A stretch of 64,000 bases of DNA, from the IMG/VR virus record IMGVR_UViG_3300029288_000001, positions 96,001 through 160,000 of that record; one strand, written 5' to 3'. This DNA is from a virus. Lineage: Duplodnaviria > Caudoviricetes. The position numbers were made by a program, and so were the translations under genes. This document shows, piece after piece, positions 12,458 through 35,024 of this stretch. The notes under the pieces were generated by a model. The model worked only from the letters and a program-made list of their open reading frames with translations. It ran no database searches and was not told where the DNA came from. How positions within the stretch are numbered: position 1 is the stretch's first letter; the number at the start of each line of letters is the position of its first letter.

Positions 12458-12490
12458 GCCTCCCGCCAGGGTAAGCCAGCAAAGGGAGAC
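12458..12490 (-). ncRNA. tRNA minihelix-like element (t-element) 1
   Basis: GTCTCCC TTT GCTGG CTTACC CTGGC GGGAGGC. Confidence 0.55.
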
Positions 12491-12920
12491 ATAGTTTAAG
12501 ATAAGAAAAAAAAAAGAGTTAAAATTAAGAATTAATAATAATCGAGTATTTCGGGAATAACCTTCTCGTATTTAATACCTTTCTGGTCAAAAACCTCGTA
12601 TAGTTTGTCTGGTTCTCCTTGGTAATCGATGTCGTTCTCTCGCATTTCGTTTATTATGGCGTTAATCTCGATTTCGGTTAAGTCACACACAAACATACTA
12701 TCCGATAAATTTGTATCTCCCATATCTAGCGCGTAGTATTTCATACTATTTTCCTCCTTTTTTTTACACTTTAAACGGACAACACACGCTACACGGTAAG
12801 TCGTCGCAGTCGTGCTGGCGCATGTCGTTGTCCGATATTCCAAATTTCTTTCTATGCGTTTCGCAGATCTGATCGTCTATGCGTTGTAGATACCCTACGG
12901 GGTCGCTGTTCCAGCTCATA

Positions 12921-14888
12921 TTACGCTACTACCGAGTTATGTTTAAGTAGGTTTATGATCGTATCTTTTTCTAGCTTTTCCAACGATAAGTCTATGTCGC
13001 ACCCTTCGCTAGTATCCACGAGAATGGCACCTGCGTTCTGTAATACTTCTGCTAAAGTTATTTGGTTCTCGCACGAGTGGATAAGAGATTTCGTCGCGTT
13101 TTTAACATATTCCGTGTTTTTCAAGGCTCTCGCGTTTCCCATTTCAAACGAGGTTATATAAAATCTACAGCGATCCTCTTCTTGAACTATTAATCCAAGA
13201 ATCTTTTGTTTTACATTTATGCTACACCCGATCTCCGCGATCATATTGTTGGGATTTACTACGAAGTTTCTGCTTTCTTCTAGAACCTTCTGTTTCGACA
13301 CGAACAGTTTAAACGGAACTTCTATTTTGTTATAATCGCTAAAATTGAAGTAGTTTAATCCGAGCGCGAAGCTACACGGAGAACCAGACTTGATAAAAAA
13401 CGCTTCTGAAGCCCCGTTCTTTCCAGAAGCGTCGGTCATGTCACCAGAGAATAATACTTTCCTATCGGAACTTCTATAGAAGGCGTTCCATCCTATTTTA
13501 ACGCCGTCAAGGGACTGTAACGATAAATCGAGGTCAATTCTGTTTCTGCTTACATTGTTCCAATTAACTCCTACTGTTATACCTGTGGGAGCTTCTACAT
13601 ACGACATCGAAGGTAGGTTTCCGACCATCTGTTTCTCGGTAGCGGGAACCGTATATACGATATTATTTGGAATATAGATCTTCTTACCGTTCACATTCGT
13701 TTTAATGTCCGAAGCTATGGAATCTAACACCATTTTGAGAGCGCTGTCGTATGCCGCAGAAACGAAAAAAGCGAAGTTCTTCGCGTAATCGGTCGCGTAA
13801 GCTTTACCGTTTCTTATCTTGTAGAGCATAGAAGTTGGTTTCATTAGTCTATATCGTAACGCTTGAGCTAATCTAACTTTTCTAAACACATTCGCCGTGG
13901 GTAGAGCGCGTTCTAGGACTGCCTGCCATGGTTTACCGTTTTTTACGAGGCTTGTTATAGTATCTAATGGAGATATGGGAGCGTTAACATTGTGGAGTTT
14001 CGCGAGTTTTCTAAGTCTATTTATGAGATGCCTGATTCTAGGGTCGGGATTTGTCTTAAACGCTAAGAAAAGCGGTTTAAATCGGTAGAAAATAGACGAG
14101 AGCACTATGAGTCTTTGTTTTCTAAGAGTATATTCTTGTTGTATATACTTACACATTAAAGGATAAAGGTCTACGGGAGAAATCTTTAACGCTTCTATCG
14201 TTTCCTTGTCTTTGATCAAGAGCGTTTTTCCAATTCGTTTATACACGCACATTCTAAGAAACTCTACGGGATCGGAAGGAACTAATCCAAGCTGATCGCT
14301 TACGATGATTTTAACTTCTCTGTTCTTTATGGATTCCACATTTTCTTTGGTTAACACGCCAAAAGTATTAGAAACCGTAATCACATCGTCAATGGTCTGT
14401 TTACTGAGCGCGATTCCCGAGGCTAATAACTCGAGCATCTTCTTCGCGATCTCGTCTTTCGTGTATCCCTTTATTAAGGTTAAACTGATCTCCTTTACAT
14501 CTACCTTTGGTATGTCTAACGCTTCTACGGGAATGTAAACATTGTTCTGATCGTATATTCCGAGCGACTCGTAACCGTAAGTGGTGATATAATGAAATAT
14601 TTGTTCTACCACCAATTGAAACAAGCTCGCCGTTGCCACCTTATTCCACGACTTGTGGAAGGTCGCGTTCATCTGTTCTTTAGTTAATCCTAGGGTGCTA
14701 GACACATCTTTTATTATAGAGCGCAGTTCTCCGATTGTATAATTACCATACACATCAGGAGAGAATACGAAACCGCGTTCTATGGTTTCTTCTAAAATCT
14801 CCTCGTTGATACTTGCCTTCTTTCCATCGATGTGTTTATCGATCGGAACTGCTTTAAACAATCTAATTAACGATTCCATATTCATCAC
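12921..14888 (-). CDS. ROT/TROVE-like helical repeat protein with C-terminal TerD-like domain
   Basis: NATFHKSWNKV...EQIFHYITTYG N-terminus; C-terminal RIDLDLSL...IGWNAFYR...LFSGDMTDA...GASE is TerD-like; matches the Prok-RING_4-associated architecture without the RING. Confidence 0.7.
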   Translation of the reverse strand: MMNMESLIRLFKAVPIDKHIDGKKASINEEILEETIERGFVFSPDVYGNYTIGELRSIIKDVSSTLGLTKEQMNATFHKSWNKVATASLFQLVVEQIFHYITTYGYESLGIYDQNNVYIPVEALDIPKVDVKEISLTLIKGYTKDEIAKKMLELLASGIALSKQTIDDVITVSNTFGVLTKENVESIKNREVKIIVSDQLGLVPSDPVEFLRMCVYKRIGKTLLIKDKETIEALKISPVDLYPLMCKYIQQEYTLRKQRLIVLSSIFYRFKPLFLAFKTNPDPRIRHLINRLRKLAKLHNVNAPISPLDTITSLVKNGKPWQAVLERALPTANVFRKVRLAQALRYRLMKPTSMLYKIRNGKAYATDYAKNFAFFVSAAYDSALKMVLDSIASDIKTNVNGKKIYIPNNIVYTVPATEKQMVGNLPSMSYVEAPTGITVGVNWNNVSRNRIDLDLSLQSLDGVKIGWNAFYRSSDRKVLFSGDMTDASGKNGASEAFFIKSGSPCSFALGLNYFNFSDYNKIEVPFKLFVSKQKVLEESRNFVVNPNNMIAEIGCSINVKQKILGLIVQEEDRCRFYITSFEMGNARALKNTEYVKNATKSLIHSCENQITLAEVLQNAGAILVDTSEGCDIDLSLEKLEKDTIINLLKHNSVVA

Positions 14889-14900
14889 ATTAAATTAAGA

Positions 14901-15010
14901 GGGCGGGAAGTAGGTTTTTGATTTGTCAGTCAAGTGTTAGGAACTTCCTATGCCCATTTGTGGCGGAGAGTAGATTCTCGTCTTGGGATTGGTAGGAACT
15001 CTCTTTGCCA
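14901..15010 (-). ncRNA. Two tandem covarying stem-loop units directly upstream of the TROVE-like/TerD gene
   Basis: TGGC AAA GAGAGT TCCTA-N19-CT ACTCTC C GCCA and GGGC ATA GGAAGT TCCTA-N24-CT ACTTCC C GCCC. Confidence 0.7.
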
Positions 15011-15014
15011 CTAT

Positions 15015-15060
15015 ACTTATTCGAGGATTCGAACCCCTACATCCCAATGAAAAAATAAGT
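15015..15060 (-). ncRNA. Degenerate tRNA-like element
   Basis: ACTTATT...AGGGG TTCGAAT CCTCG AATAAGT: 7-bp stem plus canonical T-loop, no D or anticodon arm. Confidence 0.45.
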
Positions 15061-15088
15061 GGTTTACACATTATAATTTACTCCTTTT

Positions 15089-15262
15089 TTATTTAAATAA
15101 CTTTTTCTTCAAAAACAAAATTTTTATGCCTTCTACAGGGCAACTCTCTTTGGAACATTTGGCTTTTGGATTGCCTCTATGATTGCATGTTCCGCTGAAC
15201 AAATTATGGTACGGACAATCCGCTATTTCTAACCCAAAGTATTCCGTTTTTTCCTTAACCAT
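15089..15262 (-). CDS. 57-aa Cys-rich peptide (paralog 1)
   Basis: MVKEKTEYFGLEIADCPYHNLFSGTCNHRGNPKAKCSKESCPVEGIKILFLKKKLFK, translated by hand; paralog at 22329-22502. Confidence 0.7.
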   Translation of the reverse strand: MVKEKTEYFGLEIADCPYHNLFSGTCNHRGNPKAKCSKESCPVEGIKILFLKKKLFK

Positions 15263-15682
15263 GATCTATTCCTTCTTTTCTCTCTTTTAATATGCTTTTC
15301 TTATTGTTTTTATCTTTAATAATATTTTAATTCATTCGTGCTATATAAATATTTTTTATTTTTACATTAATAGACTATTTGTCGTTATCTCTTGTCATTT
15401 TGGCTACGATCTCATCAAACCGCACTCCAGAGAGATACCCTTCTATATAATCGTCGGTAAAATTCGAGAATTCCGTCCATAGCATATCTCCTATACGCTC
15501 TAACAAATCCTCGTATTCTTCGATCGATAACGCTCTTATCTTCTTCTTTAAATCTTCGCTTTTTTCATCGATCATTTCAATTAATTCGTCTTTTTCAATC
15601 GTTATTTTTATACTCGTATTAAATTACCTCAAAATGATTATATTATCGTAAAAAATTTAAAAAAAATAGTTTTATTATATAT

Positions 15683-16000
15683 TTACTCCTCTTCTTTTTT
15701 ATTTATTATCTTAACGCAGTTCAATAACATATCCGTGAACTTCTTTCCGATCTTACTGATCTCAAGATATAGGTATTGGTTGTTAAGCTCGTTCTCGGAA
15801 TAGGAAGTGTAGACCATTCCATAATGCAATAATTCCGTAAGGTAGATCTCTAACTCAGTTTGTCTATATTTAAACTGATTCATTATCTCGTAAAACGATT
15901 TCTTTCCTTCCTTCAATAGATATAATAGAATGTGTTGGTTCTCTTCGGAATCTAACGATTTTAACATTAATCTTACTATCAACGGGAATTCGTAGCTCAT
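15683..16000 (-). CDS. Winged-helix (ArsR-like) protein
   Basis: LKSLDSEENQHILLYLLKEGKKSFYEI...LTELLHYGMV...EISKIG. Confidence 0.6.
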   Translation of the reverse strand: MSYEFPLIVRLMLKSLDSEENQHILLYLLKEGKKSFYEIMNQFKYRQTELEIYLTELLHYGMVYTSYSENELNNQYLYLEISKIGKKFTDMLLNCVKIINKKEEE

Positions 16001-18472
16001 TTCCGATCGTCCTCTTTCTTCTTTTCCTTTTCCTCGTCAGGCGCGCGTATTATTATCGTCCTTTTCTTGGATGGAATTAAGTCCATGATCTCCTGTAGAG
16101 TTGGTTTTGGTTTCTTTCCTAAATATTCTTTGATCAATGCATTCCAGTGCGCGAACTCGTGCGTCCATACGGGTCTTCCGAGCACCTTTTCCACGGCTTC
16201 GTGGAAGTCTCCAAAGTCCATACATAACCTCTTTTGAAACAGTTGGAATTTCACGATCTCCTCGGCAGTTTTTGATTTCCACCATTCCGTTTTCGCGAGT
16301 GCGATCGCTTCTTCTTCCGTCAATTGTTTTAGATCGTTCATAATTTATCCTCCTTCTTGGGTTCAATATCTTTAATTCTAAAATGTATAAATTTATTTCT
16401 TTTAGCAATTTCTATCCATTCTCGCGCCTCGGGATGATTCATGGTTCGAGCGTGCATGATTCTTTCTTCGCCATCTACTTCGCAGTATATTTCCATGTAT
16501 TTAGTGGGATCTCCATAAGGAATATCTTCATATTTTTCCTGTTTTAATTCGAAAAACTTCTCGAACTCTTTTATATCGGTGTCGTTATCGTTCAAAGGAT
16601 TCTCGTCCTCCCACTCGCCTATTTCCTCCTCTTGAGCTTGAATGCGGAAGAAATGAAGATATTTAGAACATTGATCAAGTAGTGTTTTGGTCTCTTCTGC
16701 GCCTGCATCGTCGAAATCTACGAGATACGCGGTAATTTTGATTAATTTAACCATAATTTATCCTCCTTTCTCTCTCTTTGGACATCGTTCTCCTACGATA
16801 TCCTTGTAATTTATGTTCTCCTTACACGATAGATCGTAATCCATGTTCATAATATAGTTCTTACACCCTTCGCAGTCGGGGTGCCAGTCTATACCATCAT
16901 CCTCGTAGTAAGGGTATTGGGCTAATCTTAATAACTCTTGGTTCTTTTGTAATTCTGGATATTTTACGAGAAGACCGTGTAAACAATTTCTACACGAATT
17001 AAAGCCTTCTAAGAATTGTTCGGTTCTCACGGTTTATTCTCCTCCTTGATCTCGTATTTTTTAAGTTGTTCTCGCACCATACCGATGTCTTGTCTAATGG
17101 ACTCATCCCAATCGTAGAAGTCTCCTACGGTTTCTAAGCGTAGTTCTTTACACGATAGGCTACCGTTATATATGTTCATAGCGTTATAAAGAGACTTAAC
17201 TGCTTCCTCGATGGCTATCAGCGATTGTCTTGCCTCGGTAGCTAACTGCCCGTGGAGTTGATCCAACGCTTCTTTAAGTTTAGGATCGGTCATTTCTATT
17301 CGTCCTCCTTTTCTTTTAACTTCGCTTCTAACTTCTCGAATAGATCGTAGAGTTCTAATATATCGTGTCCATCAATTTGGTGAATAGCGTTCACGGCGAT
17401 CTGGGGTATACCGTTATAGGTAATGCTCATTAAACAAATACTATCTAATTTCTTCTTGAACTTTACTAATTCGTCCGCGTATAAAACTTCCTTCTTTTCT
17501 TCCTTGGAATGGTTTTCTAATTGTTCTATCAGCCTCTTTATGGTTTTAATATCTTTGGGTTTATCGTAGATCTCTTGGAGAGTGCGGTAGAAGAACTCGT
17601 CGCATTCCTTTCGCGTGGACCGATTCCACACGTCGTCTAAGCTTACATCTTCTTCGAATTCGAATTTGGGCATTTTACATTCCCTCCTTGTCTAAGCCAT
17701 ATTTCTTCACGGTAGCTACGAATAGGTTTAACCCTTCTTGACTGTCGATGTGATAACTATGAATATATAACTCGCCTTTAAGTTTTCCGCTTTTTATTGC
17801 TTCGCGTATATCTATCATGTTAATAAAAGGAAGGTTGTTCTCTTTTATATATTTTCTAATAAGCTCCTTGTCGGGGGTTGCCCATTCTTCTGGAGGAGGA
17901 CATCCACAATGCCCTACTACTCTTACATCGCATTGTCCTATGGGATCGGCGTAGAGTTCCTTCGCGATCGCTAGCGGTATACGACAATCAACCATCCAAT
18001 AATACCACGCGCGTTCGAAGTTCATCTTACCTAGACATCCTTTTGTATTATATGGCACTTCTCCGCTCCCTCTCTCGTAGACGATCGGTATTCCTGCCTC
18101 GGTAAGTTCCTTCTCTATGTATTGATCACAATACTTTCTCCCTGCCATGTTGGGAAAGTTCGTTTTCTTCATTAAATTACTTGGAAACATGTTTTACCTC
18201 CTTTATTGTATTATTCTCTACTTTTATTGGAACTTCTCTTCGATGTTCGTAGCACCACATTAATGCATTGATAGATCCTCGTAGGAATCGTAGCAACTCC
18301 GCCAGACTCTCCGATTGTTTTGGATCGATAAAGAACCCATCGTTGTCGCTCGTCTGTTTAAGCGCAGTAAGTATAGCCTCTCCTACAGATTTTGAAGTTT
18401 TCACGAATGTTTCCACAAAATTAATCATCTGATCTTTAGTAATGTTGGTGACGATCTCGTTATAATCCATAT
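15997..18472 (-). CDS. Cluster of hypothetical proteins
   Basis: ORFs 15997-16341 (FQLFQKRLCMDF..VLGRPVWTHEF, phage-like), 16338-16754, 16758-17030, 17027-17293, 17296-17673, 17675-18190 (FERAWYYW..VRVVGHCGCPPP), 18177-18472. Confidence 0.6.
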
Positions 18473-18504
18473 TATACTTTTCCTCTTTTTGTTTTTTTAT
18501 ATAC

Positions 18505-18537
18505 GCCTCCCGCTGGTTAACACCAACAATAGGGGGC
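18505..18537 (-). ncRNA. tRNA minihelix-like element 2
   Basis: GCCCCCT ATT GTTGG TGTTAA CCAGC GGGAGGC. Confidence 0.55.
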
Positions 18538-18782
18538 ACGGTTTATTATTAAAAAATTAAAAAAAATTATTTAGTTAGTTTTTCTTTTAAATCGTTAGCT
18601 CAATGTCTTTTCCAAGATCGGCGTTGGTTAGATCCTTAAACGGAGAGTCTTTAAACTCGGATTTGTTGAAAATTTTATACCCTGCGATTTCAAAACTAAC
18701 GCGCCTCGTTCTCTTTCCGTCGCTATATATATCGTCGCGTATGCTGGTAAGTTTTCCTTTCATTATCTACACCTTTTTCCTT

Positions 18783-19103
18783 TTAAGCTTTCGTGTTTCT
18801 TATACCGTCTATAAGGCGAGAAACATCGTAGGATTGGAGTTTTTGTTCTAAGATCGTTATGCTTTTCTTCATAACATTTAATTGGGTTAGAAATAAAGAA
18901 ACATCGATCGCACCCGCGTTATCGTTAATATTTCCTATGTGCGAAAAGATCGCTTCTCGTAGGAATTCCGACATCTTCGCGTTACCTTTTATTGTCTCGA
19001 TCATCTTCTTCTCCTCTGCGGTTAATCTTACTCCAACCTGTACTTCTTTATTCGTTCTCACCTTATCGCCTCCGTTAGTAATCCAGACGTCGCATGATAC
19101 CAA
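18783..19103 (-). CDS. Ribbon-helix-helix DNA-binding protein
   Basis: VQVGVRLTAEEKKMIE...KMSEFLREAI. Confidence 0.7.
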   Translation of the reverse strand: MVSCDVWITNGGDKVRTNKEVQVGVRLTAEEKKMIETIKGNAKMSEFLREAIFSHIGNINDNAGAIDVSLFLTQLNVMKKSITILEQKLQSYDVSRLIDGIRNTKA

Positions 19104-19105
19104 TA

Positions 19106-19708: not shown

Positions 19709-19709
19709 A

Positions 19710-20006: not shown

Positions 20007-20007
20007 T

Positions 20008-22317: not shown

Positions 22318-22328
22318 GATTCTAATTA

Positions 22329-22523: not shown

Positions 22524-25444
22524 CTAATCGTAGTCCAATTCGGAAATCCCTAGTTTCTTCAGCTCTTCGTAGACCTCTTCGTACCATTCTCGTCTTTCCC
22601 GTAGCTCTTCAATTTCTTTTTTGTTTGTTTCTATGAATTTGTCCATAGTTATAATATTAGACTGGGCTTGTTTTAAATTACCCATCCAGATAATATTCAG
22701 CGCGTTACCTAGTCCGCCATTTTCAAACTGTTTTTTAAGTTGGTCTGGCGCGTTCGAATATAGCTTCACATTATCTACCGTGCCTCGTCTTATCCTATTA
22801 TAATCGGTATTATCTTTTAGATCCTTCTCTATTTGTTCCGTAGCGGATTCTATGCCGTTTTTATAATACCACATTAACTCTCGCACATATCGTTCGTGTT
22901 CGATCGTAACAATACGCTTTACGAACTCTTCCGCTGATTCTTCTATTTCTTCCATTTTAACTTACCTCCTTTATTCTTTAAGGTGCTTCCTGCGGGACTT
23001 AAACCCACATAGAAAGCATGATAGATTAAATATAATAATAAAAAACAATTATTTAGTTTTTAGTTTTTGTTCGCGATACCATTTACCCGCCATTTCGCTA
23101 AAATGGTTCGCTTTCTTCGCGTTCTCGCAGTTTTCTTCCTTGTTTTCTATAAACCCTTCGAAATTATGCCTCTTACATAGCCAACAAAACATCGTTTTTG
23201 GTAGATAAAAGTCCTCGTAATAAATACAGTCCATACATTTTGGTGAACATTTTATGGTCGGATGCTTACCGCACTCACACGAAAGCGTGAATTCTGGTGC
23301 TTCTTCCACATAAATATGTCCACATACTTCGCAAACCTTATATTCGTGCGATCCAAAAAGCTTTATATTCTCTTTACAACATTCCTTCGTTTTATTTTTC
23401 ACCTTCTTTATTAAACCTCTTTTCTAATATAACGCCTAGCTCGTCTTCCAATCTATCGGCGATCTCTTTTAGTTTAACCTTTACTTGCTCGAACGGAACC
23501 TTTACCCGTATCTTATACATTTCCTCGGTGTATATATAGTTATGAAATTCTCGGAAACCATATTTTAGTTTCTTGTCTTTTCTCTTCTTAGTTTTTTTAT
23601 GGGTTCTCCCAATCGTAAGAACGGTGTGAATCTTCGTGGTCTGGTCGTCTATCTTCTTAATATCGATCATTTTTTCGTAATTAAAAGAAGGATTTATATT
23701 CATCTTACCGATCGTTAATCTGGTTTCGTCCAAACTACGGTCGTCCGTTCCCAATCTTCCCATTCCAGCGTCAAAATATTTTCTCATTGTATAAAACTCC
23801 TTTTTTATTTATCGTTCGATATTAGAATAATTGGTGGTTTTTTGGTATCGGTGAGTTTCCGTCTCATCGGTGGGAGAATGAGATCCTCCCCACACCACCT
23901 AAGTTTTGACTCGAAGCCGTCTCAAAACTAGGAAAAAGACGATATTAGAAAAAAATAAAATAAAAAAAAATTAAGATTTGTCGATAATCCACGTATATTC
24001 TAAGTCCTTGCCTTCTAATAGAACTTGCGGTTTATAGCCCAGCTCATAGAGGATCTCCTTAGAAACCTTCTCTCCTGCCATGTGCGAGGTGGGAACATCT
24101 ATCAATTTCACTACGATCACCGTGCCTTTAAAACTATACCCTGCTAGGTATTTTATGTTACTCATTGCCATAGGTTATTCCTCTAACACATCTAATATTT
24201 CTTTCAATTTAGTTAATACATCGCCTTGATCTAGGTCTTTCGTGCCTATCTTCCCGTAGAGGTCGTTTACCAGTTCGGTAGCCTTTTGTTTCTTCTTCTC
24301 GTTCTCGTTGTAGCACTTCTCACAATACACCGAATCGTCCGTAGTCCACGCGCCGTTCACGAAGCATTTCACTATAAAATAATCGTCTCCATCCGTGATA
24401 GGATCGCCACAGATGTCGCAATCGAATAATTGGGTCATTACAACATCCCTCCGATCGTTTTGACTAGCTGGTCTTCGGAGACCTTTCCGAGAATGAAGTC
24501 GTTCAAGCTCTGGTATAACATCAGATCGTCTTCGGGCAACATTTCTATAATCCGCGCGTAGTCTACCGTTTCGATATACTTTTTCTTAGCTATTTCTTCC
24601 ATTTCCTCTTTCATTTCTACTACTCGATCGAAAATATCCATAGTTCTATTCCTCCAACGGTGGTAATTCCACCTCAATTGATTTTAAATAATTCCTTAGT
24701 TTCATAACCCTACCTATCCTCTCCCTCTTCTCCTGCTTATCGTTACGGAAGCCGTAACGAGTAGACGCAAAGAACGTCCATATCCTGAAATCGTTGATCG
24801 CATAGGATGTTAGAATAGCATTACAAAAACAACAAATCACATCTTTTCCTTCTTTTATACCGAAGAAGCCACAGATAGGACAGGTTCCTTCGTCGTCATC
24901 ATCCCAGTCGTCCTCGTCCTCGTCCTCATCGTCGAAATCATCATCATCGTCAAATCCATGCTTGTCGTCCTCGTCCCAGTCGTCATCCTCGTCCTCTTCG
25001 ATAGGTTCTTCTTTCTTTTCTTCTACCATTCTTATACCTCCTTATACTCGCTACATAAATATCCAATTAAATTCCAGAAAGCGTTAAACTTACGATCGCT
25101 TTCGCATTGAAAAATCGTAACGGATAACGCTAAAGAATCCCATACTTTATTGAAAGCCTCGCGATACTTACAGATCTTAAAATATCCGCAAGTAAAACAC
25201 GATCTATCTTTTACTTTTTCCATTTTTATTCCTCCTTTTTAAGTTCTTGAACAGGAAATTTTATGGATACTTCTATTTTATCTATTAATTTGTCTGAGGA
25301 CATACAGGTTACGGAAATGTCTTTAATTGTTCCTTCTCGTATCTTCTTCATAATTACATCGTTCACGATCTTTTCGATGTTTTCCTTTGTTTTATACGCT
25401 AATAACTCTAATTTGTTTTGTTTTTGTTTTGTCATCTTTTCCAT
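22524..25444 (-). CDS. Cluster of hypothetical proteins including a very acidic zinc-finger protein (24646-25029)
   Basis: ORFs 22524-22955, 23049-23390, 23392-23787, 23971-24171, 24175-24438, 24438-24677, 24646-25029, 25032-25223, 25226-25444. Confidence 0.6.
22985..23017 (-). ncRNA. tRNA minihelix-like element 3
   Basis: GCTTTCT AT GTGGG TTTAAGT CCCGC AGGAAGC followed by ACC. Confidence 0.65.
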
Positions 25445-25472
25445 TTTTATTACCTTTTTTATTTTTTATATT

Positions 25473-25506: not shown

Positions 25507-25830
25507 TTGTTAGTTAGATTAAATAAAAAAATGATTTAGAGTTAAGATTATCACCAGCTATCGTGGATGACCACATCGCACTTGGGACAAGCGTAGAGCT
25601 TCATGTCTTCCGAGATCTTCTTGAACTCTTCTTCGTGTTCGTATTCTAAAGTCATTTTTTCGCCGTTCCATTCTCTAGATTTATGACCGCACACGGGACA
25701 TTTCATTTCTTTTTCGCCACCTTCTTTCTAGTGCATTTACTAACATCGATCAACTCAAAAGATACTTGATACCCTTTACAATACCTTCCTTTCAATTGGT
25801 GCATACAATCCTTACATTTTTCGTTCATAG

Positions 25831-28043
25831 TTATAGATTCCTCCTGAAATATTCTAAATCTTCTACTGGAATCGCGATCCGCCCGTGATCAGGACATCTT
25901 CCCGAATGAGGGCACACCGCGTTGGTTTCTTCGCATACTTCGTGGTGGTGCGGTTCCGTATGAAACGACTCTAGAACTCTTCCACACCAGCATTTTGGTT
26001 TCTGTCTCTCCATATTTATTCTACATCCCCGCGTTGTTTAATGGTAAGGGCTATTTGTTTGATTTGTTCGGGATCGTATTGTTCGAACCATTCGCCTTCA
26101 TCGTTCTGCGATTCGCCTCTATCCTCTAAATTATCGAGGAAAGCATCCTTAGAGCCACAGATGTCCTTCTCAATAAGACAGAACGGAGCGCACGGATCGC
26201 CACTGACAGATACGGGTAATGTAGAGTATCCTGGACATTTGTTAGGTAGCATATGAACCTCCATTTTCTTGTAGCGTAAATTAGCGTCTCGACAAAAAAC
26301 ACACTTTCCCATCGCATCAAAGGACATATTTTCGTAGTCTTTCCACTTAGTTTCCCACGATTTCTGGTATAGTTCGCGTCTTCTCTTTACATAACATTCT
26401 GGACATAATTCCATGTTCTCTACGGAGTGGTTCTTACCACATTCATCGCATATTCTATGCGTATCCACGAAGAACAGCTCTCCTTTGTATTCCTTGTTCA
26501 TTATCATTTATTTTACCTCCAATGTGTAATAATACGGTTCTCGGCAGTGGTATTCAACCGCCTTGTTAAGAGCCGCTTGCAACGCTTGTCTATACTTATC
26601 TACATAATCTGGTAACGAGTCCAACACTTCCTCCGCAGAGGCGTCCGCCATCGTGCCGAGGTTCCAGACCGTAAACTTCTTGACCTCTCCGTTAGTACCG
26701 TTTATAGAATAGCTATATATAACGACTGTAAAATCCTGACGGTGGTGGTCTACTACGATCTCGATAATAGGTTTCGAAGTCGCGAATACAGCGTGGACTC
26801 CTTGCGAAAGAGAGCCTCTCCTCGGAGTCCTATACGGTTTCAATGGTTCTCCGTTATCTCCACATATAATCGTAGCGGAACCGGTGTTAGTCGCGCCCCC
26901 GCCTCGTTCTTCCGCGAGAAGACGGAAATAATACTCGAATCCTTCGAGACAATCCACTTCTACCTTGATCGTGGACTCGTCAATCTCAAATGGCGCACTT
27001 ACACAATGCCCTTTGAGCGTCTGCCAAAACCTATCGGTTCTACCGACTGGGAAAGGGGGCATTTTTTCCCCTTTTACGACAATTTGTTTTGTTACCACAA
27101 TATCAACCTCGTTTTCTTATTTTTTATGAAGCCTCCTACTAGGGTAAGCTAGTATAAGGGGGCATGGTTTTTTAAATAAATAAAGGAAAAAACAAGAGTT
27201 AAGATTTCTTTTCTGGTTCTTCCACTATCAATGCTCTTTCAAAACATTTCGCACATACTAAGAATCTTTCGTCCTTTCTAATCTCCTCTTCTAAATGCTT
27301 GGGAACTTCGCGTTCGAAACAGCCTCTTAAACATCTTACTTTCATATTTTACCTCGTTAGTTTATTAAAACATAAAAAAAATTAATTAATTCTTTCTGGT
27401 TTCCTTTTATACTTCTCTTCCACGATCTTAAAACATCCTTCTAGCGAATTGGCTGTGTCCATGTCTCCTTTATACCATAGCGGATACGAAATGACTTCGA
27501 CCATCCGTTTATTATTTAATTTATTTATTATATAATACTGAGCGTCTACCGTCCATAGTCTCATTCCGTGATGAAAGCTTATTTCCAACACATAAACCTT
27601 TCCTTCGCATTCGAACTCTTCCGATACTAATCGTGGATACTCTGCCTTCTCCCACGCTCTGTTTTCGATCTTCAATATTTCCGTTATAATCGCCTTCAAT
27701 TTTGGTATAATACTTTCTTACTATGGAATACCTCGTGATCGATGTCGTAGATGAAATCCTTCTCGAACTCGTAATACTCGTCTTCTTTCATTAAATATAC
27801 CGTGTCGTAGAAACAATCGTCTCGGATAACATTATACCCTCCCGAGAACACTTGTTCCCCGCTATGTCCTGCGGTGATAAACCATCTTCCTTCGCTGTCC
27901 TTTTTAATCATACCGTATTTCTCGATGCCCCTTATCTTTTCGAAGTCCATTCCCGAATCGAACATGAACTTAAAGGAAACGGAACTATCTCTAGAATAGA
28001 TGTCCGTAGCCGTTATAATAACCACTCGTTTCTTATTTTCCAT
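25831..28043 (-). CDS. Hypothetical proteins
   Basis: ORFs 25831-26013, 26016-26507, 26508-27098, 27382-27699, 27696-28043. Confidence 0.6.
27131..27163 (-). ncRNA. tRNA minihelix-like element 5
   Basis: GCCCCCT TAT ACTAG CTTACC CTAGT AGGAGGC. Confidence 0.6.
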
Positions 28044-28044
28044 T

Positions 28045-28656
28045 TTAGATCACCTTTTTATCTTCCTCTATACCATTGTAATTGGAGCTAACATCCTTTA
28101 CCACAACCCCACCTTCAACCTTATATGTCCCTTTGAAGCCCATTCCAGCTTCGTAGTATTTCATTTTGAATTTCAATATTGGAAACTTATTGGACATTTC
28201 CAATATTATCTCGCAGGGAGGACTCCACGCGCTAAGGAAATTGAAATACAGCTCGTCTCCGTGATCCTCGAACTCAACCTCGTCTCCGATGTTCCATTTC
28301 GTTCCCCAATTAGAAAAACACCAATCGTAGCCTCCTAGATTGAATCCGTCCATTGCGTAGCGATACCTAGGTTCTTTCCTTTTCGTATCGTACATCGGTA
28401 GACCGTAAGGAAACAAAAACTCGGTCATTTCTTGGTGTCTAAGAGCTTCAAACCGCCTCTTCTTTGCGGGTCGTTGCCAGAACTTGTCAAACGCCTCGTT
28501 CCATTTCTTCGATCTCTCATCTAAGTCATTGTATATTTGTGGATAAGGTTTGTATTTGTTAAAGTCTATTTCGTCTTGTCCGTTGTAGTTTAAAAAAGCC
28601 TCTAAGTCTTGGCGTTCTCCTACCACACTTAGATTACACTCGCACCAATTTGGCGT
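28045..28656 (-). CDS. DUF1281/YubB ferredoxin-like domain protein, ACG start
   Basis: (M)PNWCECNL N-terminus from ACG at 28656; YDWCFSNWGTKWN, FLSAWSPP, YYEAGMGFKG. Confidence 0.85.
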   Translation of the reverse strand, partial: TPNWCECNLSVVGERQDLEAFLNYNGQDEIDFNKYKPYPQIYNDLDERSKKWNEAFDKFWQRPAKKRRFEALRHQEMTEFLFPYGLPMYDTKRKEPRYRYAMDGFNLGGYDWCFSNWGTKWNIGDEVEFEDHGDELYFNFLSAWSPPCEIILEMSNKFPILKFKMKYYEAGMGFKGTYKVEGGVVVKDVSSNYNGIEEDKKVI

Positions 28657-28657
28657 T

Positions 28658-29699
28658 TTATTTCTCCTCCTTATCTTTTATTACTGTCCATCTCTTAAAA
28701 TCGAACTTCCCCTTCGAAGCACAGCTCTGGTGGGCGTAGTAGGAATTCGCTAACTCGTTCCCAGCCCATTCGTGTATTTGGATAAAATCGTCTTCGTCCT
28801 CTTCTATTTCCGCTTCACACACTTCGCATATTCGATCTCCCATTTAGAACACCCCACCTAATCTCTTTTCTTTCAATATTTCGTATAACTCCGCGATCAA
28901 CTGATCCGCGTGATCGTGTTCTTCTTGGCTTCTAAACCCTTTCTTAATTCCTTCGGCTATTGGTCTTAACCAATCTAATATCTTGTCGTGCTGTTCGTTA
29001 GTGTCCATGTATTCGTTGCATATTCCCGCGAGATATATAACATCCACATGTCCTATGTGCTTAGACATATCAGAAAACATCTTACACACATCTTTATGGA
29101 TACATTGACTACAAAGACATCTCTTTTCCACCATTTTACACGCCACCTTCCTCGAAATATATCTTCTTTAGATTGGCAATATCATCTGGTAGAGGTGTAT
29201 CACTATAATCATTACTACTATCGTGGGTTTCCAAATTACAGATAACTTTCCATAACTTATCTAAATTCTCTGGTCTCATTCCCATTTTTATTACCTCTTT
29301 ATTTTTGAACGGTGTTTTTGATTTAAACAAGGTTTAACCTAGACGCAACACCAAACCTTGAGAACTAATATTAGAAAAAAATTAAAAGTCCAAGATATGA
29401 GCTAATCGTTTCTTCATTTCCTCTTCCGACATATACGAACAATCGTCTTCTGGTCGATCTAAGAGAGTATCCACGAACAAGAACGCGCGGTGTGGCGATA
29501 CTTTTATTACTTGTTTTATCTTTTCGTGATCGGTGTCCACGATCTCGCAGTAGAGCCAATTACTTCGGAAGCGAATGTAGAGCTTATACCATATAACGAT
29601 ACCGTTAGAGAACTCTTCCTTAGCCTCCGCATCCCACTGGGACGGATACGATACGCCTTTATTTTCCAGCTTCGTTATTTTTAATTTATAATTAATCAT
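28658..29699 (-). CDS. Small hypothetical proteins
   Basis: ORFs 28658-28843, 28844-29146, 29136-29330, 29382-29699. Confidence 0.55.
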
Positions 29700-29730
29700 T
29701 TTATCTTTACCATTTTTATTTTAATTGATC

Positions 29731-29765
29731 GCTCCCAGCAGGACTTAAACCCGCGTGAAAGGAGC
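29731..29765 (-). ncRNA. tRNA minihelix-like element 6
   Basis: GCTCCTT TCAC GCGGG TTTAAGT CCTGC TGGGAGC. Confidence 0.6.
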
Positions 29766-29830
29766 ATACTAGTAAGTAAAATAAAAAAAAAAAGAATTAG
29801 ATTTTACGGTTGAAACCGCTAAATATCTTC

Positions 29831-31093
29831 CTATAATTGTTCTAAATCCCCTATGGGAACGACTTTCCGTTTGCTCGGACTCGAACTCCTCTCTGTTTTT
29901 GAGCGAGCGACTTCAATGAAATCCTCAGGGTTCTCCTTGGGTTGGATCGATTGCTCGAACTGTTCTGGCTTGTCGATGATTCTCTGGGCGATCTCGTTGT
30001 AGGCTTCCCTCTCCACTAATGTTTGCGCCTCTTTAGAGGCTTTCATATTCGCGCACGCGATTCCAAAGACATTTTTGGGATACCCTTGCGTCTCTATGAT
30101 CTCGATTAGCTTATCCGTCTTTTCTTGGCTGATGTTAAGAGAAGCCCGTAAGTCGTATTGTTCAAAATCCTTAAGCTCTAACCACTGTTCGGTCGCTAAT
30201 CGTTGGAATCGAGCGTCAAACTCCTTCGTCTTTCCCAGCACCTGATTGATTACATATTTGATCTTGCGATCGAGAGAGGCTTTCCCTCCTATGTGGGGGA
30301 TGTTCGCCATCGTTTGTCGCGTGGTTCCGATCACGCCAATCTTCAAGCTCGGAATGTAGATCACCGAACCAATTCGAAGCGAACTAAATTTGAACTCGGA
30401 GTTAATAAGATATACTCCGCACACGGTAAGATCGGACTCTGAATTAATGTCCTTCCTGCGGACATAATCGATCTCTGAGTGGAGCGCGTCAGCGTGGGCT
30501 TCTAAGAAATCAAGCTCGATTTTAAGCTCCTCGAAAGACTTCTTCACATCAGTAAAGGCTTCGAAGTCGCTAATATGGGTAAAGAACTCCGTTGTGAACG
30601 CGCGAAAAGAACCTTCTTTAGTAAAGCTGTCATAAACCTCGTGGGCTATGATTGGCTTTGTTCTGGTATTTTCCGTCCTTCTAAATCGCCACACATCCTT
30701 CACGATTTGATTATATCGTTCTATATTGTCGTGTCGGTCTACCTTCACTTTTACTTCTTTACCATCAACCACCTGAACCGCGTATGGGTTCAAGAGTTGA
30801 TCGATCGCAACGGAAGATTGGATCAGTTTGGTAGTGTCGCCTATCCCTAAGAAACTATTAAGATGGGACACAGCGAAGTATGGTGCGGGTTTGGTGCGTT
30901 TCGATTCGTTTTCCAGCTCAACGGTTAAAGGATACACGTCAAGACTGGCATCGTAGCTAAAGTACGGAGGTTTAAGACATTTCTTCCTCAGCACTATTCT
31001 ATCCTCGAGGTCTTTTAAAATATCAGCCTCCGAAGGATAGTGGTTGGTGCGCTCCATTAAAGGAGCGACTTGGGCAAATATATTATTAGCCAT
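29831..31093 (-). CDS. DUF932-like protein
   Basis: FRAFTTEFFTHISDFE...CGVYLINSEFKFSSLRIGSVIY resembles the DUF932 core; disordered tail ending DLEQL. Confidence 0.5.
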   Translation of the reverse strand: MANNIFAQVAPLMERTNHYPSEADILKDLEDRIVLRKKCLKPPYFSYDASLDVYPLTVELENESKRTKPAPYFAVSHLNSFLGIGDTTKLIQSSVAIDQLLNPYAVQVVDGKEVKVKVDRHDNIERYNQIVKDVWRFRRTENTRTKPIIAHEVYDSFTKEGSFRAFTTEFFTHISDFEAFTDVKKSFEELKIELDFLEAHADALHSEIDYVRRKDINSESDLTVCGVYLINSEFKFSSLRIGSVIYIPSLKIGVIGTTRQTMANIPHIGGKASLDRKIKYVINQVLGKTKEFDARFQRLATEQWLELKDFEQYDLRASLNISQEKTDKLIEIIETQGYPKNVFGIACANMKASKEAQTLVEREAYNEIAQRIIDKPEQFEQSIQPKENPEDFIEVARSKTERSSSPSKRKVVPIGDLEQL

Positions 31094-31150
31094 AACTTTT
31101 ATCCTCTTTTGTTTTCATTATTTTTTTTAACTATTAGTAATAGATTATTA

Positions 31151-31200
31151 ATTTCTATATAAATATATCTTTTATTGTAATTTGTCGTTAATTGTCGTTT
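31151..31200 (-). promoter_or_regulatory. Promoter with phased AACGACAA boxes
   Basis: TTGTCGTT at 31182 and 31192; minus-strand TTTATATAG downstream. Confidence 0.55.
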
Positions 31201-31819
31201 TAAACGATAAAATATAAAAAAAAGAGTTTTTAATATTTCTTTTCATCTATTATTTCAATGGTTATTTTAAAAGGTTTCGCGCTTTCCTTGTTGTGATCTT
31301 CCACGAAATCGATCACCTTGTCGGCTTTGTCTTCTTCGTTGTGTTCTATTTCAACGACTCGAAGCGGGGGAAATTCTCCTAAATAATCTGGTAATTTATA
31401 GTCCTTATACCCAGTAATAATTCCTTTAAATGTAATCTTTTTGGTTCCACTCATATTCTTGCCTTCATTCTTTTAACGGTTCTAAGTCCGAAGCGTCAGC
31501 GTGGATCTCTTTCTTCACGGTGCGAATCTGGATGTCTTTCAAGAACGATGTCCACTCGCCTATCTTCTTGTTCGCTAGCGTATCCATCTTGTTTATGTTC
31601 TCGAACACATCGCCTTCCGCCAGCTTCTCTAACATAGGTAGAACATCGCGGTAATTATCCTTCCGTAAGGAAATGTATAATACGGGCTTCTCGTTTTCGT
31701 CTCGTATTTCGATACCCATTTCGAAGTCTTGGGGGGCGATTGATATTATAGGATATGCCGCTCGCACGAAGTCTTTAAGTTGAGGGGCGGTTTCCCGCGT
31801 GAATATTCCTACGAGCATA

Positions 31820-31966
31820 TTACTTGCACACCCCGTTAAATCCGCATACGCCCTTGTGGGCATCCCCTAGCTTACTCATTAACTCCTCTAACTCGGGTGC
31901 TTCGCCTTCTGAAAATAACACGACCTTGTCCCCGTCTTCGCTAATCCAAAACTCGATCTCTTCCAT
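31820..31966 (-). CDS. 48-aa DUF2997-like peptide
   Basis: MEEIEFWISEDGDKVVLFSEGEAPELEELMSKLGDAHKGVCGFNGVCK, translated by hand. Confidence 0.5.
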   Translation of the reverse strand: MEEIEFWISEDGDKVVLFSEGEAPELEELMSKLGDAHKGVCGFNGVCK

Positions 31967-31975
31967 ATCGATTAT

Positions 31976-32167
31976 CTACCTCTTTATCGCGTTGTTTTGC
32001 GTGGTCGTTTGGTAGAACTCGGGCTTCTTATCAGTCTTTACTGCGGTGCCAAGCTTTTGGATTATCGCTTCGGTCTCTTTGATACACGCCGAGCCTTTAT
32101 GTCCTTCCGTTTCAACGCTTATTACATCGCCCGTTTCTTCGTTAAAATTAACAATTATCTTTGGTAT
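31976..32167 (-). CDS. DUF2997 family protein, ATA start
   Basis: (M)PKIIVNFNEETGDVISVETEGHKGSACIKETEAIIQKLG..KKPEFYQ; GAGGTGG RBS; no NTG codon in frame; follows the DUF1257 gene. Confidence 0.8.
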   Translation of the reverse strand: MPKIIVNFNEETGDVISVETEGHKGSACIKETEAIIQKLGTAVKTDKKPEFYQTTTQNNAIKR

Positions 32168-32178
32168 AGTTTACCACC

Positions 32179-32553
32179 TCAATATTTTATCATTACAAGT
32201 TGTTTCTTTCCGTTCGATTGGAGCATATAGCCCTTCTTCTTCGCCTCGGTGATAATGAGCGTATTGTTATATTCCCGCTTAAACTGCGCGATTAACTCTC
32301 TCGAGTTCCGCACTATGAACGGGTCGCACACAATATCGTAAGTGCCAGCTTCGTTCTTCACGAAACCAATATCGTAATTACCACCTACCTTCGATTTTAC
32401 CGCAATATTGACCATTTGGGTTTGACCTCCGTAGCCTCGAATGGTAGTGTTGTAAGCTACCTCCATCTTCAAATTCGCAAGAGCTTTGTTAATATATTCC
32501 AGACTCTTGAGCATACATTTTACGGTAGTCATGTGGCTCATATTATTCGTCAT
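32179..32553 (-). CDS. DUF1257 (Ycf35-like) protein
   Basis: MSHMTTVK...IRGYGG...YDIGFVKN..GTYDIVCD. Confidence 0.85.
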   Translation of the reverse strand: MTNNMSHMTTVKCMLKSLEYINKALANLKMEVAYNTTIRGYGGQTQMVNIAVKSKVGGNYDIGFVKNEAGTYDIVCDPFIVRNSRELIAQFKREYNNTLIITEAKKKGYMLQSNGKKQLVMIKY

Positions 32554-34216
32554 CCCCCTCTACATTGATTTTTCTTCCTTTTTTGGGCATTTCGACGTTA
32601 AAATAATCCTTTGTCTCTTCTATCTTGGAACTCGCGAACCGCGCTTTTTCCGTAGCATATTTGCGATTGAAGTCGATCTTATCCTTTGCCGTCACGCTTA
32701 ACGGTCGGAACTCTCGCAAGGATTTAACGAGGTCTTCTTGTTCAAGCTCGTTCCTGCCATCCGCGTAGTACCTTCGTATAGCTTCGCAGATCCGTTTCTC
32801 TACTTCTGAGCCGGAGAACTCCTTGCCCTTCTCTGAGCTATATTTTACCAGCTCTTCAATATCGAACTTCTTAGGATCGCATTTATACTTCCGCAATTGA
32901 ATGTTCCAAATCTCTCTCAGCTCGTTGGCGTTTGGGAGATCGACAAACCAGATGTCGTCAAACCGTCTAAAAAGCTCGGGAAATTTCCTCTCGATTAGCT
33001 GGATGTCGTTCGCGGTTGCCGCCCAGTAGATCGGGTCGGGACATTCTTGCATAAAAGTGAGCTGTTCTCCGAGAAGTCTTTTAGAAGTTCCTCCGTCCAG
33101 CTCTCCTCCTTCGCCCATCGCCTTGTCGATCTCATCCACGAGCACGACTACGGGAGATATAGCTCGTATGGTCTTGAACGCGATTCGTTGGTTGCTTTCG
33201 GATTCCCCTACGATCCCTCCGAGGAGAGCGGCATAGTTAAGCCTCAACAAAGGAAGCCCTACCTCCGTCGCGATCACCTTCGCGGAGAGCGATTTACCAC
33301 ATCCCGTCTGACCGAAAATAAGAACTCCCTTCGGAGGGGGAATGTCGTGCTTCCGCGCATCAATACTGAACGCGCGTTTCATCCGTAGAATGCTCGTTTT
33401 AAGAAGATCGAGACCTCCAAGCGATTGTATGCTTAAACTCGATGTGTCGTAGAACTCTAACGCTTGGTGTGCCATTTTCTTGATCTCCTCTTCTTTCGCC
33501 TTGATAATGAACGAAGGATTGAACCCTTGAAAGGAGATGTAGCTCTCCATCAATTTGGTTCGCATTATCTCCTCGGGAAGACCAGATAACGACCGTATTA
33601 CGGCTTCTCTCTCTCCGTTCTTGAGCGTGACCACGAGATTACCTCTTTTGAGATTGGCGATCACACCATCAACTATAAACTCGGTCTCGGCGGTGTCAGG
33701 AAACGGATAGTCTACTACTGAAATATCGCTTCTCAAACTCGGAGGCACGACTAAATTTGGAGCTATCAAAATCGCGCTCGAACCAGACCGCCTCAGAAAG
33801 AACGCGAGTTCCCTCAAGGCGCGTTGAACTTGGTTGTCGTTCTGGAGAATCTGATCTAAATCGTTAAAGAAAAATATACAACGGTCTTCCGTCTTGATCG
33901 TCCGCACCTTCTCCATAGCATTGGTAGCGGTTAAAGTGTTCTCATCAAACTTATTGAAGCTCGAAGCTAACGCCATCTCCCAAGTCGTGATCTTGTCTTC
34001 TTTTATTATTTCACGTAATCCCCGCGTTTGGCTCCAGACAAAATACCTGCGGGGTTCAAACCCGTCTTCCTTGTCCAGAACTTCAAATCCTTTTATAACA
34101 TTAGTCATAACCCGCACTTCCTCGGGACTAATAATAAAGTTCAATGGAACTTTAGCTCGAACGCGAGTCCTGACCATTTTTACAGTAGGATTAATAAACT
34201 CGTTATTTGTTGCCAT
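32543..34216 (-). CDS. Ycf46-like AAA+ ATPase
   Basis: PPPKGVLIFGQTGCGKSL (Walker A), VVLVDEIDK (Walker B), ATAND...PELFRRFD; degenerate N-terminal AAA domain. Confidence 0.92.
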   Translation of the reverse strand: MATNNEFINPTVKMVRTRVRAKVPLNFIISPEEVRVMTNVIKGFEVLDKEDGFEPRRYFVWSQTRGLREIIKEDKITTWEMALASSFNKFDENTLTATNAMEKVRTIKTEDRCIFFFNDLDQILQNDNQVQRALRELAFFLRRSGSSAILIAPNLVVPPSLRSDISVVDYPFPDTAETEFIVDGVIANLKRGNLVVTLKNGEREAVIRSLSGLPEEIMRTKLMESYISFQGFNPSFIIKAKEEEIKKMAHQALEFYDTSSLSIQSLGGLDLLKTSILRMKRAFSIDARKHDIPPPKGVLIFGQTGCGKSLSAKVIATEVGLPLLRLNYAALLGGIVGESESNQRIAFKTIRAISPVVVLVDEIDKAMGEGGELDGGTSKRLLGEQLTFMQECPDPIYWAATANDIQLIERKFPELFRRFDDIWFVDLPNANELREIWNIQLRKYKCDPKKFDIEELVKYSSEKGKEFSGSEVEKRICEAIRRYYADGRNELEQEDLVKSLREFRPLSVTAKDKIDFNRKYATEKARFASSKIEETKDYFNVEMPKKGRKINVEGDDE

Positions 34217-34220
34217 ATAT

Positions 34221-34400
34221 TTTATTACCTCTTTTGTTTTTTAAATTTTGTCCACTACGATTTGTAATGGCTCTTGCCGGAACGGATCGGATAGGGTGAG
34301 GTGCCAGATTGTTAAACAAAAGAGGTAAAACAAAAATGGTCTTGCGGGGTATCGGATACCGTTCTTTCGGCTTCATAATTAGTTTTTTAAACCTCTTTTG
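34221..34400 (-). promoter_or_regulatory. Structured leader with anti-RBS upstream of the AAA ATPase operon
   Basis: Minus-strand TTACCTCTTTTGTTT (about 34314-34328) is complementary to the AAA RBS AAACAAAAGAGGTAA (about 34225-34239). Confidence 0.45.
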
Positions 34401-34990
34401 ATTTTAATTTAAACAATAGTATAATACTAATAAAAAAAATAGTTTATTAAATTTTTGTTTTTTATTCCTATATTGGATACTTCCTCGCGGGAGTAATGAC
34501 CACGCATTTTTCGTGATACCACTCTCGCTCCGTATTGGGATAAATTACTTCCACCGCGTCGTTAGCGTCTAGTTCCTCTTCACACGCATCGCACACGACC
34601 TTTTCAGACATTGGATTTCCCATATTAATCTATATCCTCCACATCTTCGTCGGTAATCTCAAAGACCGTGTTTAACTGCTCAAGGGCTTTATTCAATCTC
34701 TCTCTCGCAAAGTCTATACCCTCGTTTCCCATATCTTCGAGATCGGCTAGGGCGTTGGAAATATTGCCCCATATCTCTAAGATATTATCTCGATTTGCGC
34801 TCTCGAAGTCCATTAGAACGCATCCTCCGAAGTGTTATTCTCGCATTCGTCATTGTTGCAGTGGACACAATCGTTGTTGCAGAAGTTATCGCATTCTCCA
34901 CAATTATTATTGCACACATCATTTCTTCCAAAATTAAAACAAAAACATTCTATTCCATCCATAACATTTTACCTCTTTATTTTTTTATGT

Positions 34991-35024
34991 GCCTTCCGCA
35001 GGACTCGAACCCGCACAGGAAGGC
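34991..35024 (-). ncRNA. tRNA minihelix-like element 7 (canonical T-loop)
   Basis: GCCTTCC TGT GCGGG TTCGAGT CCTGC GGAAGGC A. Confidence 0.7.

Follow-up and report, generated by a model that had tools for sequence, protein, structure and literature searches.

Why does the same short hairpin recur in the few wide gaps of an otherwise densely packed array of small virus genes? The question is raised by a 64,000-nt stretch of DNA, hereafter the window, which corresponds to bases 96001-160000 of a 224,826-bp virus record (IMG/VR IMGVR_UViG_3300029288_000001) bearing direct terminal repeats and rated complete. The window contains exactly seven of these hairpins, termed minihelix elements e1 to e7 (Table 1), each 33-35 nt long and all on the minus (coding) strand. 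The family is very probably a genuine RNA structure, under selection and of tRNA origin. As to its role, we favour, at roughly 45%, the reading that the elements are tRNA-derived leader modules which head operons and which, in the manner of the tRNA-like processing signals called t-elements, would be cut or tailed by tRNA enzymes.

Each minihelix is made of a 7-bp outer stem, a linker of 2-4 nt confined to the 5' side, a 5-bp inner stem and a 6-7-nt loop, the 3' halves of the outer and inner stems being contiguous, with no gap. This topology reproduces the stacked acceptor stem and T-arm of a tRNA and omits its D and anticodon arms. Our own structural parse of the seven elements was compared letter by letter with the window sequence; the start positions given in the original prediction, which had been made from the sequence alone, proved correct, as did its description of an acceptor-like 7-bp stem, a linker and a 5-bp arm. 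The 5' strands of the outer stems are pyrimidine-rich (GCCCCCT in three copies, then GTCTCCC, GCCTTCC, GCTTTCT and GCTCCTT) and the 3' strands purine-rich (GGGAGGC and variants). A G1-C72 pair is present in all seven elements and the inner-stem pair that closes the loop is an invariant G-C. The discriminator position reads A, G, A, A, T, G, A from e1 to e7, a purine in six copies out of seven, and CCA is encoded by none. The tRNA T-arm motif GGTTCRANYCC is exact in e7 and found with one mismatch in e3, e4 and e6. Loops are TTTAAGT (three copies) and TTCGAGT (one copy), both of 7 nt, or CTTACC (two copies) and TGTTAA (one copy), both of 6 nt. Thus, where acceptor stem and T-arm had been predicted throughout, the minihelix shape holds for the whole family and the T-loop-like loop (TTTAAGT or TTCGAGT) for just four of the seven, plus the copy of a relative described below.

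The bare shape (7 bp, linker, 5 bp) gives 115 and 151 loose matches on the two strands of the genome. It means little, because loose matches are common by chance, and the sequence family and its covariation count instead. A strict IUPAC pattern yields two matches, e4 and e7, for 0.00 expected. A covariance model built from the seven elements (R1), by construction a match to its own training set, scores them at 34-45 bits, and the next-best match in the window reaches 15 bits (E-value 0.43, filters off). Scanning the 224,826-bp genome with such a model was a check proposed with the original prediction; R1 recovers the seven elements and no others, nothing else reaching an E-value of 10. No other hairpin family was found by a hairpin scan of the genome.

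Our parse of the seven copies counts 84 cells, of which 80 hold standard pairs (68 Watson-Crick and 12 G-U), and 8 of the 12 pairs are altered on both sides. None of 5000 partner shuffles reached 80 paired cells (mean 71.3, standard deviation 1.9). When the copy of the relative is included, the eight-copy alignment is 92.6% paired for 84.7 +/- 2.0 in shuffles (0 of 500) and holds 7 double-change pairs for 3.3 +/- 1.1 (0 of 500), with the reservation that the eight copies are paralogues of one virus lineage, that the shuffle tests overstate their independence and that these figures are counts, not probabilities. Slid controls are 47-58% paired. The inner helix, equivalent to the T-stem, is 100% paired over the eight copies, 4 of its 5 pairs being compensatory. 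The stems that had been predicted to covary therefore do so by pair counts and by shuffles, on seven copies as on eight. These data bear on whether the elements might simply be decayed tRNA pseudogenes or chance hairpins without any function. They can be aligned to a tRNA-Glu with an internal deletion, their loops are heterogeneous and some stems are mismatched. However, the deletion boundaries are identical in the seven copies, pairing is preserved through two-sided changes, the spacing to the next gene is fixed, a copy is kept in a relative with only 77% protein identity nearby, and the chance expectation of the sequence pattern is 0.00. We regard a functionless family as extremely improbable.

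The cells that are not Watson-Crick pairs indicate the strand. Read on the minus strand they comprise 12 G-U and 4 non-standard cells, and on the plus strand 3 G-U and 13 non-standard cells; the inner stem on the minus strand contains 7 G-U and no A.C. R1 likewise gives 34-45 bits on the minus strand versus 10-11 bits on the plus strand. From the G-U bias and the fewer non-standard cells on the minus strand, it follows that the structure belongs to coding-strand RNA or to a single strand. T-loops of the TTTAAGT type stay constant across copies while the stems covary. The family is maintained by RNA-level selection on the coding strand, through compensatory change.

The region consists of small minus-strand genes, mostly without known families, and each element stands in one of its few larger gaps as part of a module of constant order: upstream stop codon, oligo-T run (6-11 T), AT-rich stretch (7-23 nt, usually ending in AT), element, A-rich box, Shine-Dalgarno sequence and start codon. 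The start codon of the next gene lies 25-34 nt beyond the element, with no T run longer than 2 in between. Placement on the coding strand, after a T/U tract and shortly before the next ribosome-binding site, is as anticipated for all seven copies. The virus encodes an archaeal/eukaryotic-type MCM helicase and carries 8 tRNAs, 2 of them with predicted introns, and a genome scan revealed no excess of bacterial promoters or intrinsic terminators; it is probably a jumbo virus of archaea. Archaeal transcription usually terminates at an oligo-T run. Because such a run precedes the elements right after the stop codon, the elements belong to the downstream gene block as its leader. Punctuation inside long polycistronic messages, as proposed in the original prediction, is consequently not borne out, each element heading a gene block. 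Gene callers read through the elements.

Could the module act as DNA rather than RNA? The element might be a site for a dimeric regulator beside the promoter, the GGGAGGC arm resembling a B recognition element (BRE) immediately ahead of an A-rich, TATA-like box such as TATAAAAA. The outer arms show fair sequence conservation, and ATAAAAA or TATAAAAA stands 1-4 nt past the element in 6 of 7 copies. On the other hand, the A-rich box ends 17-24 nt before the start codon, and a transcription start ~23 nt downstream would fall at or within the open reading frame (ORF) and omit the Shine-Dalgarno sequence present in every one of these genes. Moreover, A-rich boxes just before Shine-Dalgarno sequences are general in this genome, and the free covariation of the inner stem, with G-U and no A.C, is unexpected for a protein-bound DNA palindrome. 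A regulator site is thus very improbable. The A-rich box was also rejected as promoter of the downstream gene, its spacing being too short and such boxes being general.

Several other identities were tried and rejected. For an intrinsic terminator, A-rich sequence follows the element on both readings, and none of 10 terminator-like sites coincides with an element. Action as plus-strand terminators only, which the original prediction had itself set against its reading, is excluded, an A run and not a T run following there. The archaeal bulge-helix-bulge splice motif needs two 3-nt bulges, one per strand, with a 4-bp helix between them, whereas the elements have a single 2-4-nt bulge, then a 5-bp helix and a loop. 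By inspection, no tandem G.A pairs of a K-turn follow the bulge. The pyrimidine-rich upstream flank is not a specific partner of the Shine-Dalgarno region (cognate -9.61 versus non-cognate -9.72 kcal/mol, 1154 of 2000 permutations being as good), because the flanks pair just as a U-run with an A-run. Separately, e1 and e5 have a loop, CUUACC, exactly complementary to GGUAAG: a GGUAAG ribosome-site motif lies 13 nt after e1, and in e5 the GTG start is overlapped by a 5-nt match to the loop. In these two cases the loop might form a pseudoknot with the ribosome site.

Table 1. Positions of the minihelix elements and of the associated features. Positions are those of the window unless a contig is named.
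Feature	Position	Strand	Description
e1 minihelix	12458-12490	-	GTCTCCC-TTT-GCTGG-CTTACC-CTGGC-GGGAGGC, discriminator A; R1 38.1 bits
e2 minihelix	18505-18537	-	loop TGTTAA; C.A mismatch at stem position 4; R1 37.6 bits
e3 minihelix	22985-23017	-	2-nt linker; T-loop-like TTTAAGT; R1 36.2 bits
e4 minihelix	25473-25506	-	T-loop-like TTTAAGT; closest to the relative's copy; R1 45.1 bits
e5 minihelix	27131-27163	-	loop CTTACC; inner stem ACTAG/CTAGT; R1 37.4 bits
e6 minihelix	29731-29765	-	irregular outer stem; T-loop-like TTTAAGT; R1 34.5 bits
e7 minihelix	34991-35024	-	perfect stems; T-arm GGTTCGAGTCC, the exact tRNA T-arm motif; R1 42.1 bits
Eighth element, in the relative	L012:150-184		R1 39.8 bits
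Oligo-T run (T10) upstream of e1	12506-12515	-	after the upstream stop codon
Remaining oligo-T runs	18551-18566, 23040-23045, 25525-25531, 27187-27192, 29783-29793, 35032-35038	-
Spacer after e1	12433-12457	-	A-rich box (ATAAAAAA type), GAGGTAA-type Shine-Dalgarno sequence, start codon; no T run >2
Loop of e1	12470-12475	-
Shine-Dalgarno sequence with GGUAAG motif after e1	~12439-12444	-
tRNA-Glu(CUC)	35498-35568	-	same module: oligo-T, ~15 nt, tRNA, A-rich spacer, Shine-Dalgarno sequence, ATG; no encoded CCA
Possible degenerate member	35974-36007	-	slot before tRNA-Glu; 12 stem positions, two C.A mismatches; no linker
Larger structured RNA	23860-23975	-	82 nt, three-way; in the 183-nt gap 23788-23970
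Intergenic motif TTAACGACAATWAACGACA	6934-6952, 11635-11663, 31183-31201	-
T-arm motif GGTTCGAATCC	15025-15035	-	within a 44-codon ORF
AAA ATPase leader helix	34314-34328 with 34225-34239	-
AAA ATPase leader helix, in the relative	L012:82-96 with ~205-219
Class II tRNA nucleotidyltransferase-type protein	L008:4590-6089 = G000 164590-166089	+	499 aa; outside the window

One slot holds a true tRNA. An alignment of whole gaps (A5) shows that the module is homologous across the seven elements, the tRNA-Glu(CUC) locus and a degenerate hairpin in the slot before it, and that the minihelix corresponds to tRNA-Glu minus its D and anticodon arms, with homologous flanks. The remark that the tRNA occupies the same kind of slot as the elements is confirmed by this alignment. 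No T run is found from the tRNA-Glu or the element to the next start codon, and because none separates them, the element or tRNA and the next gene would share one RNA. Since a true tRNA-Glu occupies the same slot, the slot would be of tRNA origin and would need cuts there. Among the successive gene blocks of this ~24-kb stretch, seven begin with a minihelix, one with a true tRNA, one with a plain 12-position hairpin and another with a larger structured RNA; a few gaps are without structure.

Other features were noticed in the window. R1 gives the degenerate hairpin only 12.6 bits, on the plus strand, and two C.A mismatches disfavour its coding-strand fold, so that the plus-strand fold is the better one (-18.9 kcal/mol), opposite to the strand bias of the seven elements. 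The larger structured RNA (-30.6 kcal/mol, z -2.5), which follows two oligo-T runs, comprises a closing stem, a long hairpin and a minihelix-like 11-bp bulged hairpin with a 7-nt loop; it fills an element-type slot and was missed by R1 and by the tRNA finders. A second dispersed intergenic motif, TTAACGACAATWAACGACA, has 4 matches at no more than 2 mismatches, for 0.01 expected, all in AT-rich gaps after oligo-T, and is a candidate protein-binding site or iteron. Finally, the exact tRNA T-arm motif GGTTCGAATCC, surrounded by a weak 4-bp stem, is chance or a tRNA remnant.

A position at the head of gene blocks would also suit a hairpin that is never cut. The RNA would start at G1, the GC-rich stem would protect it by blocking 5'-end-dependent decay or would tune translation, and the likeness to tRNA would be ancestry only. 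T precedes G1 in 6 of 7 copies, a pyrimidine/purine pattern typical of start sites, and a T/A-rich box lies ahead of the element at about -28 to -18 from G1 in most copies (-14 to -8 in e7). In the same direction point the three loops that have lost the T-loop consensus, the fixed distance of 25-34 nt to the start codon and the plain degenerate hairpin occupying the same slot. Nevertheless, TTTAAGT and CTTACC are each kept across differing stems, which argues for recognition of the loop; the element of the relative is well inside a leader and not at a plausible RNA start; and the true tRNA in the same slot needs excision to work. We consider an uncut 5'-terminal hairpin somewhat unlikely.

The relative is represented by a 2,464-bp Logan contig (L012, from SRR12486999), whose AAA ATPase is 77% identical to that of the window. 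R1 detects there an eighth element with an E-value of 2e-6 in the 235 kb searched, and this copy is an independent test of the model, unlike the seven copies used for training. It lies on the coding strand, its distance to the ATPase start being 44 nt, and a called ORF runs across it. Its 5' strand, GCCTCCC, pairs perfectly, removing the C.A mismatch of e4. The flanks of this copy align well with positions 34190-34400 of the window, where an unrelated 31-nt stretch replaces the 63 nt that bear the element in the relative. The comparison shows presence or absence of the element between relatives, the conserved unit being the 35-nt core and not its flanks.

In addition, the AAA ATPase leader of both viruses can form a 15-bp long-range helix (z about -3.8 in each), in which UUACCUCUUUUGUUU is paired with the Shine-Dalgarno region AAACAAAAGAGGUAA. 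Because the helix sequence is conserved, and not covarying, in both viruses, it is a candidate element for the control of translation. The minihelix of the relative lies within this helix.

Further copies were searched for. The AAA ATPase and MCM used as queries against viral contigs retrieved no related loci, and in metagenome contigs the AAA ATPase retrieved just relatives of 24-34% identity, all without the element. Element patterns gave two unrelated tRNA-like matches in viral contigs, none in further pattern searches and none in metagenome contigs; one match in genome contigs is due to chance, being the 3' part of an actinobacterial tRNA. No homologues were found of a 420-aa neighbour and a 57-aa ORF. 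Near-identical relatives of the flanking proteins were restricted to a second assembly of the same virus, and other look-ups gave only L012. This independent assembly in Logan/ENA (223,295 bp) has near-identical flanking proteins, which fall in the same 90%-identity clusters.

The one site where the element is present in the relative and absent here also suits a unit that matters mainly as DNA, either a shuffling cassette acting as a recombination point, similar to the promoter early stem-loops (PeSLs) of T4-type phages, or a mobile, selfish palindrome comparable to repetitive extragenic palindromic (REP) sequences or miniature inverted-repeat transposable elements (MITEs). All copies border blocks of small ORFan genes. 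PeSLs are described as composite promoter/terminator motifs that mediate insertions and deletions (PMC2839356, PMC4122927), and a TATA-like box with an inverted repeat is reported to precede ORFs in the archaeal virus HGTV-1 (PMC3950731). Recombination repeats are, however, expected to keep sequence identity rather than to accumulate compensatory changes with strand-biased G-U, and no target-site duplication is seen at the junctions. Nor was a Y1 (HUH) transposase (PF01797) or a TnpB (PF07282) found in the virus genome, a host-encoded enzyme lying outside this search. A role mainly as DNA is clearly unlikely, and a shuffling cassette can coexist with an RNA role.

The elements have the features of a stem-loop module that recurs at the edges of variable cassettes of small genes. 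Like the PeSLs, they are short and repeated and, in one case, differ in presence between close relatives. The PeSLs nonetheless combine a bacterial early promoter of the sigma-70 type with a terminator and do not resemble tRNAs, whereas the viral elements are covarying tRNA top halves. The viral module contains the oligo-T run; sigma-70 promoters and intrinsic terminators are not enriched. A brief inspection of HGTV-1 over its first 50 kb revealed ordinary haloarchaeal promoters, no minihelix and no R1 match.

We return to the favoured reading of the elements as tRNA-derived leaders that tRNA enzymes would cut or tail. RNase P, tRNase Z and CCA-adding enzymes recognise a tRNA by its acceptor/T-arm half. 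The minihelix would be transcribed on the coding strand, at or near the 5' end of a small-gene operon RNA, and host enzymes that process tRNA ends would recognise it as they do t-elements. Cleavage by host tRNase Z would fall after the discriminator; in an RNA with a 5' leader, RNase P would also cleave, before G1. These cuts would leave the downstream message with a defined, A-rich leader of 24-33 nt that includes the Shine-Dalgarno sequence, and would release a mini-RNA of 33-35 nt, which the virus's own class II CCA-adding-type enzyme could tail. The module would behave as a cassette, gained or lost between relatives.

The closest known counterparts are the t-elements, tRNA-like processing signals of plant mitochondria to which an element before the 5S rRNA of Haloferax volcanii is added; RNase P and tRNase Z cleave t-elements (PMC1920247, PMC4326828). 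Hairpin model substrates are likewise cleaved by archaeal RNase P (PMC3035440). As in our family, t-elements carry an acceptor-like stem and a T-arm beside the ends of an mRNA or rRNA without being tRNAs, and tRNAs are interchangeable with them in the slot. The analogy drawn in the original prediction is therefore fitting, the fold being that of an acceptor-like stem with a T-arm and not of a functional tRNA. Unlike t-elements, the viral elements measure only 33-35 nt, have neither D nor anticodon arm, and form a multi-copy paralogous family heading operons after oligo-T, with 3 copies lacking a T-loop. The tRNA genes (RF00005), especially the tRNA-Glu of the virus, share with them the 7-bp acceptor and 5-bp T-stem, G1-C72, the T-arm motif and the flanking module. 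Compared with these genes, the elements lack the D arm, the anticodon arm, decoding capacity and any score with the tRNA model. In eukaryotes, the MALAT1-associated small cytoplasmic RNA (mascRNA) type modules of MALAT1 and MEN-beta and the tRNA-miRNA-encoded RNA (TMER) leaders of murine gammaherpesvirus 68 are tRNA-like folds that make RNA ends through RNase P and tRNase Z, and their product can receive CCA. Those are full cloverleaf mimics acting in eukaryotic nuclei; the elements described here are half-size and stand in a prokaryote-type operon leader. In the literature, we found no minihelix family described for viruses of bacteria or archaea.

As regards the enzymes, one viral protein of 499 aa is of the class II tRNA nucleotidyltransferase type, with a PolyA_pol head, a tRNA nucleotidyltransferase domain 2 and a weak HD-domain match (below the Pfam cut-off). 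It aligns full-length to CCA-adding models, below their equivalog cut-offs. Archaea normally use class I nucleotidyltransferases; here, a class II (bacterial/eukaryotic-type) CCA-adding-type enzyme is encoded by an otherwise archaeal-looking virus. The virus genome was found to contain no RNase Z-like metallo-beta-lactamase, RtcB, tRNA splicing endonuclease or class I nucleotidyltransferase.

Once released and CCA-tailed by the viral nucleotidyltransferase, the minihelices might also act in trans as mini-tRNAs, which we hold improbable. They could titrate or mislead host enzymes, such as tRNA-directed defence toxins, whose target is the acceptor end, the CCA tail or the T-loop of tRNAs; alternatively, they could hold host tRNA-processing enzymes at viral messages. 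The more specific suggestion made at first, that of decoys against anticodon nucleases, is implausible for elements without an anticodon arm.

A number of observations weigh against processing by tRNA enzymes. At 7-23 nt from G1, the T-rich box is a little too near for a typical archaeal TATA box, so that the RNA may either start at G1 or read through the oligo-T. Removing a 5' structure could destabilise the message instead of benefiting it. The three loops of only 6 nt are not T-loop-like; in the outer stem, e2, e4 and e5 share the position of a C.A mismatch, and e6 has a U.U. No functional tRNA was recognised: the Rfam tRNA model (RF00005) gives the elements no score at its gathering threshold or even at an E-value of 10, ARAGORN calls none, and no other Rfam family matches at an E-value of 10. 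The viral CCA-adding-type enzyme may serve just the 8 tRNAs of the virus. To these points is added the paralogy of the eight copies, mentioned above with the shuffle tests.

For annotation, the family matters in that called genes overrun the elements. If the minihelices acted in trans, they would constitute a virus-encoded family of half-tRNAs with a function of its own. If they are cut by tRNA enzymes, a tRNA gene would have been whittled down to the minimal substrate of RNase P, tRNase Z and the CCA-adding enzyme and reused as a portable operon leader, the tRNA surviving in one slot marking its origin. The family would then offer a compact and testable model of what archaeal tRNA-end enzymes need in a substrate, with its 33-35 nt, eight natural variants and compensatory changes, and message processing of the t-element type, so far that of plant mitochondria and of one haloarchaeal rRNA operon, would extend to viruses of archaea.

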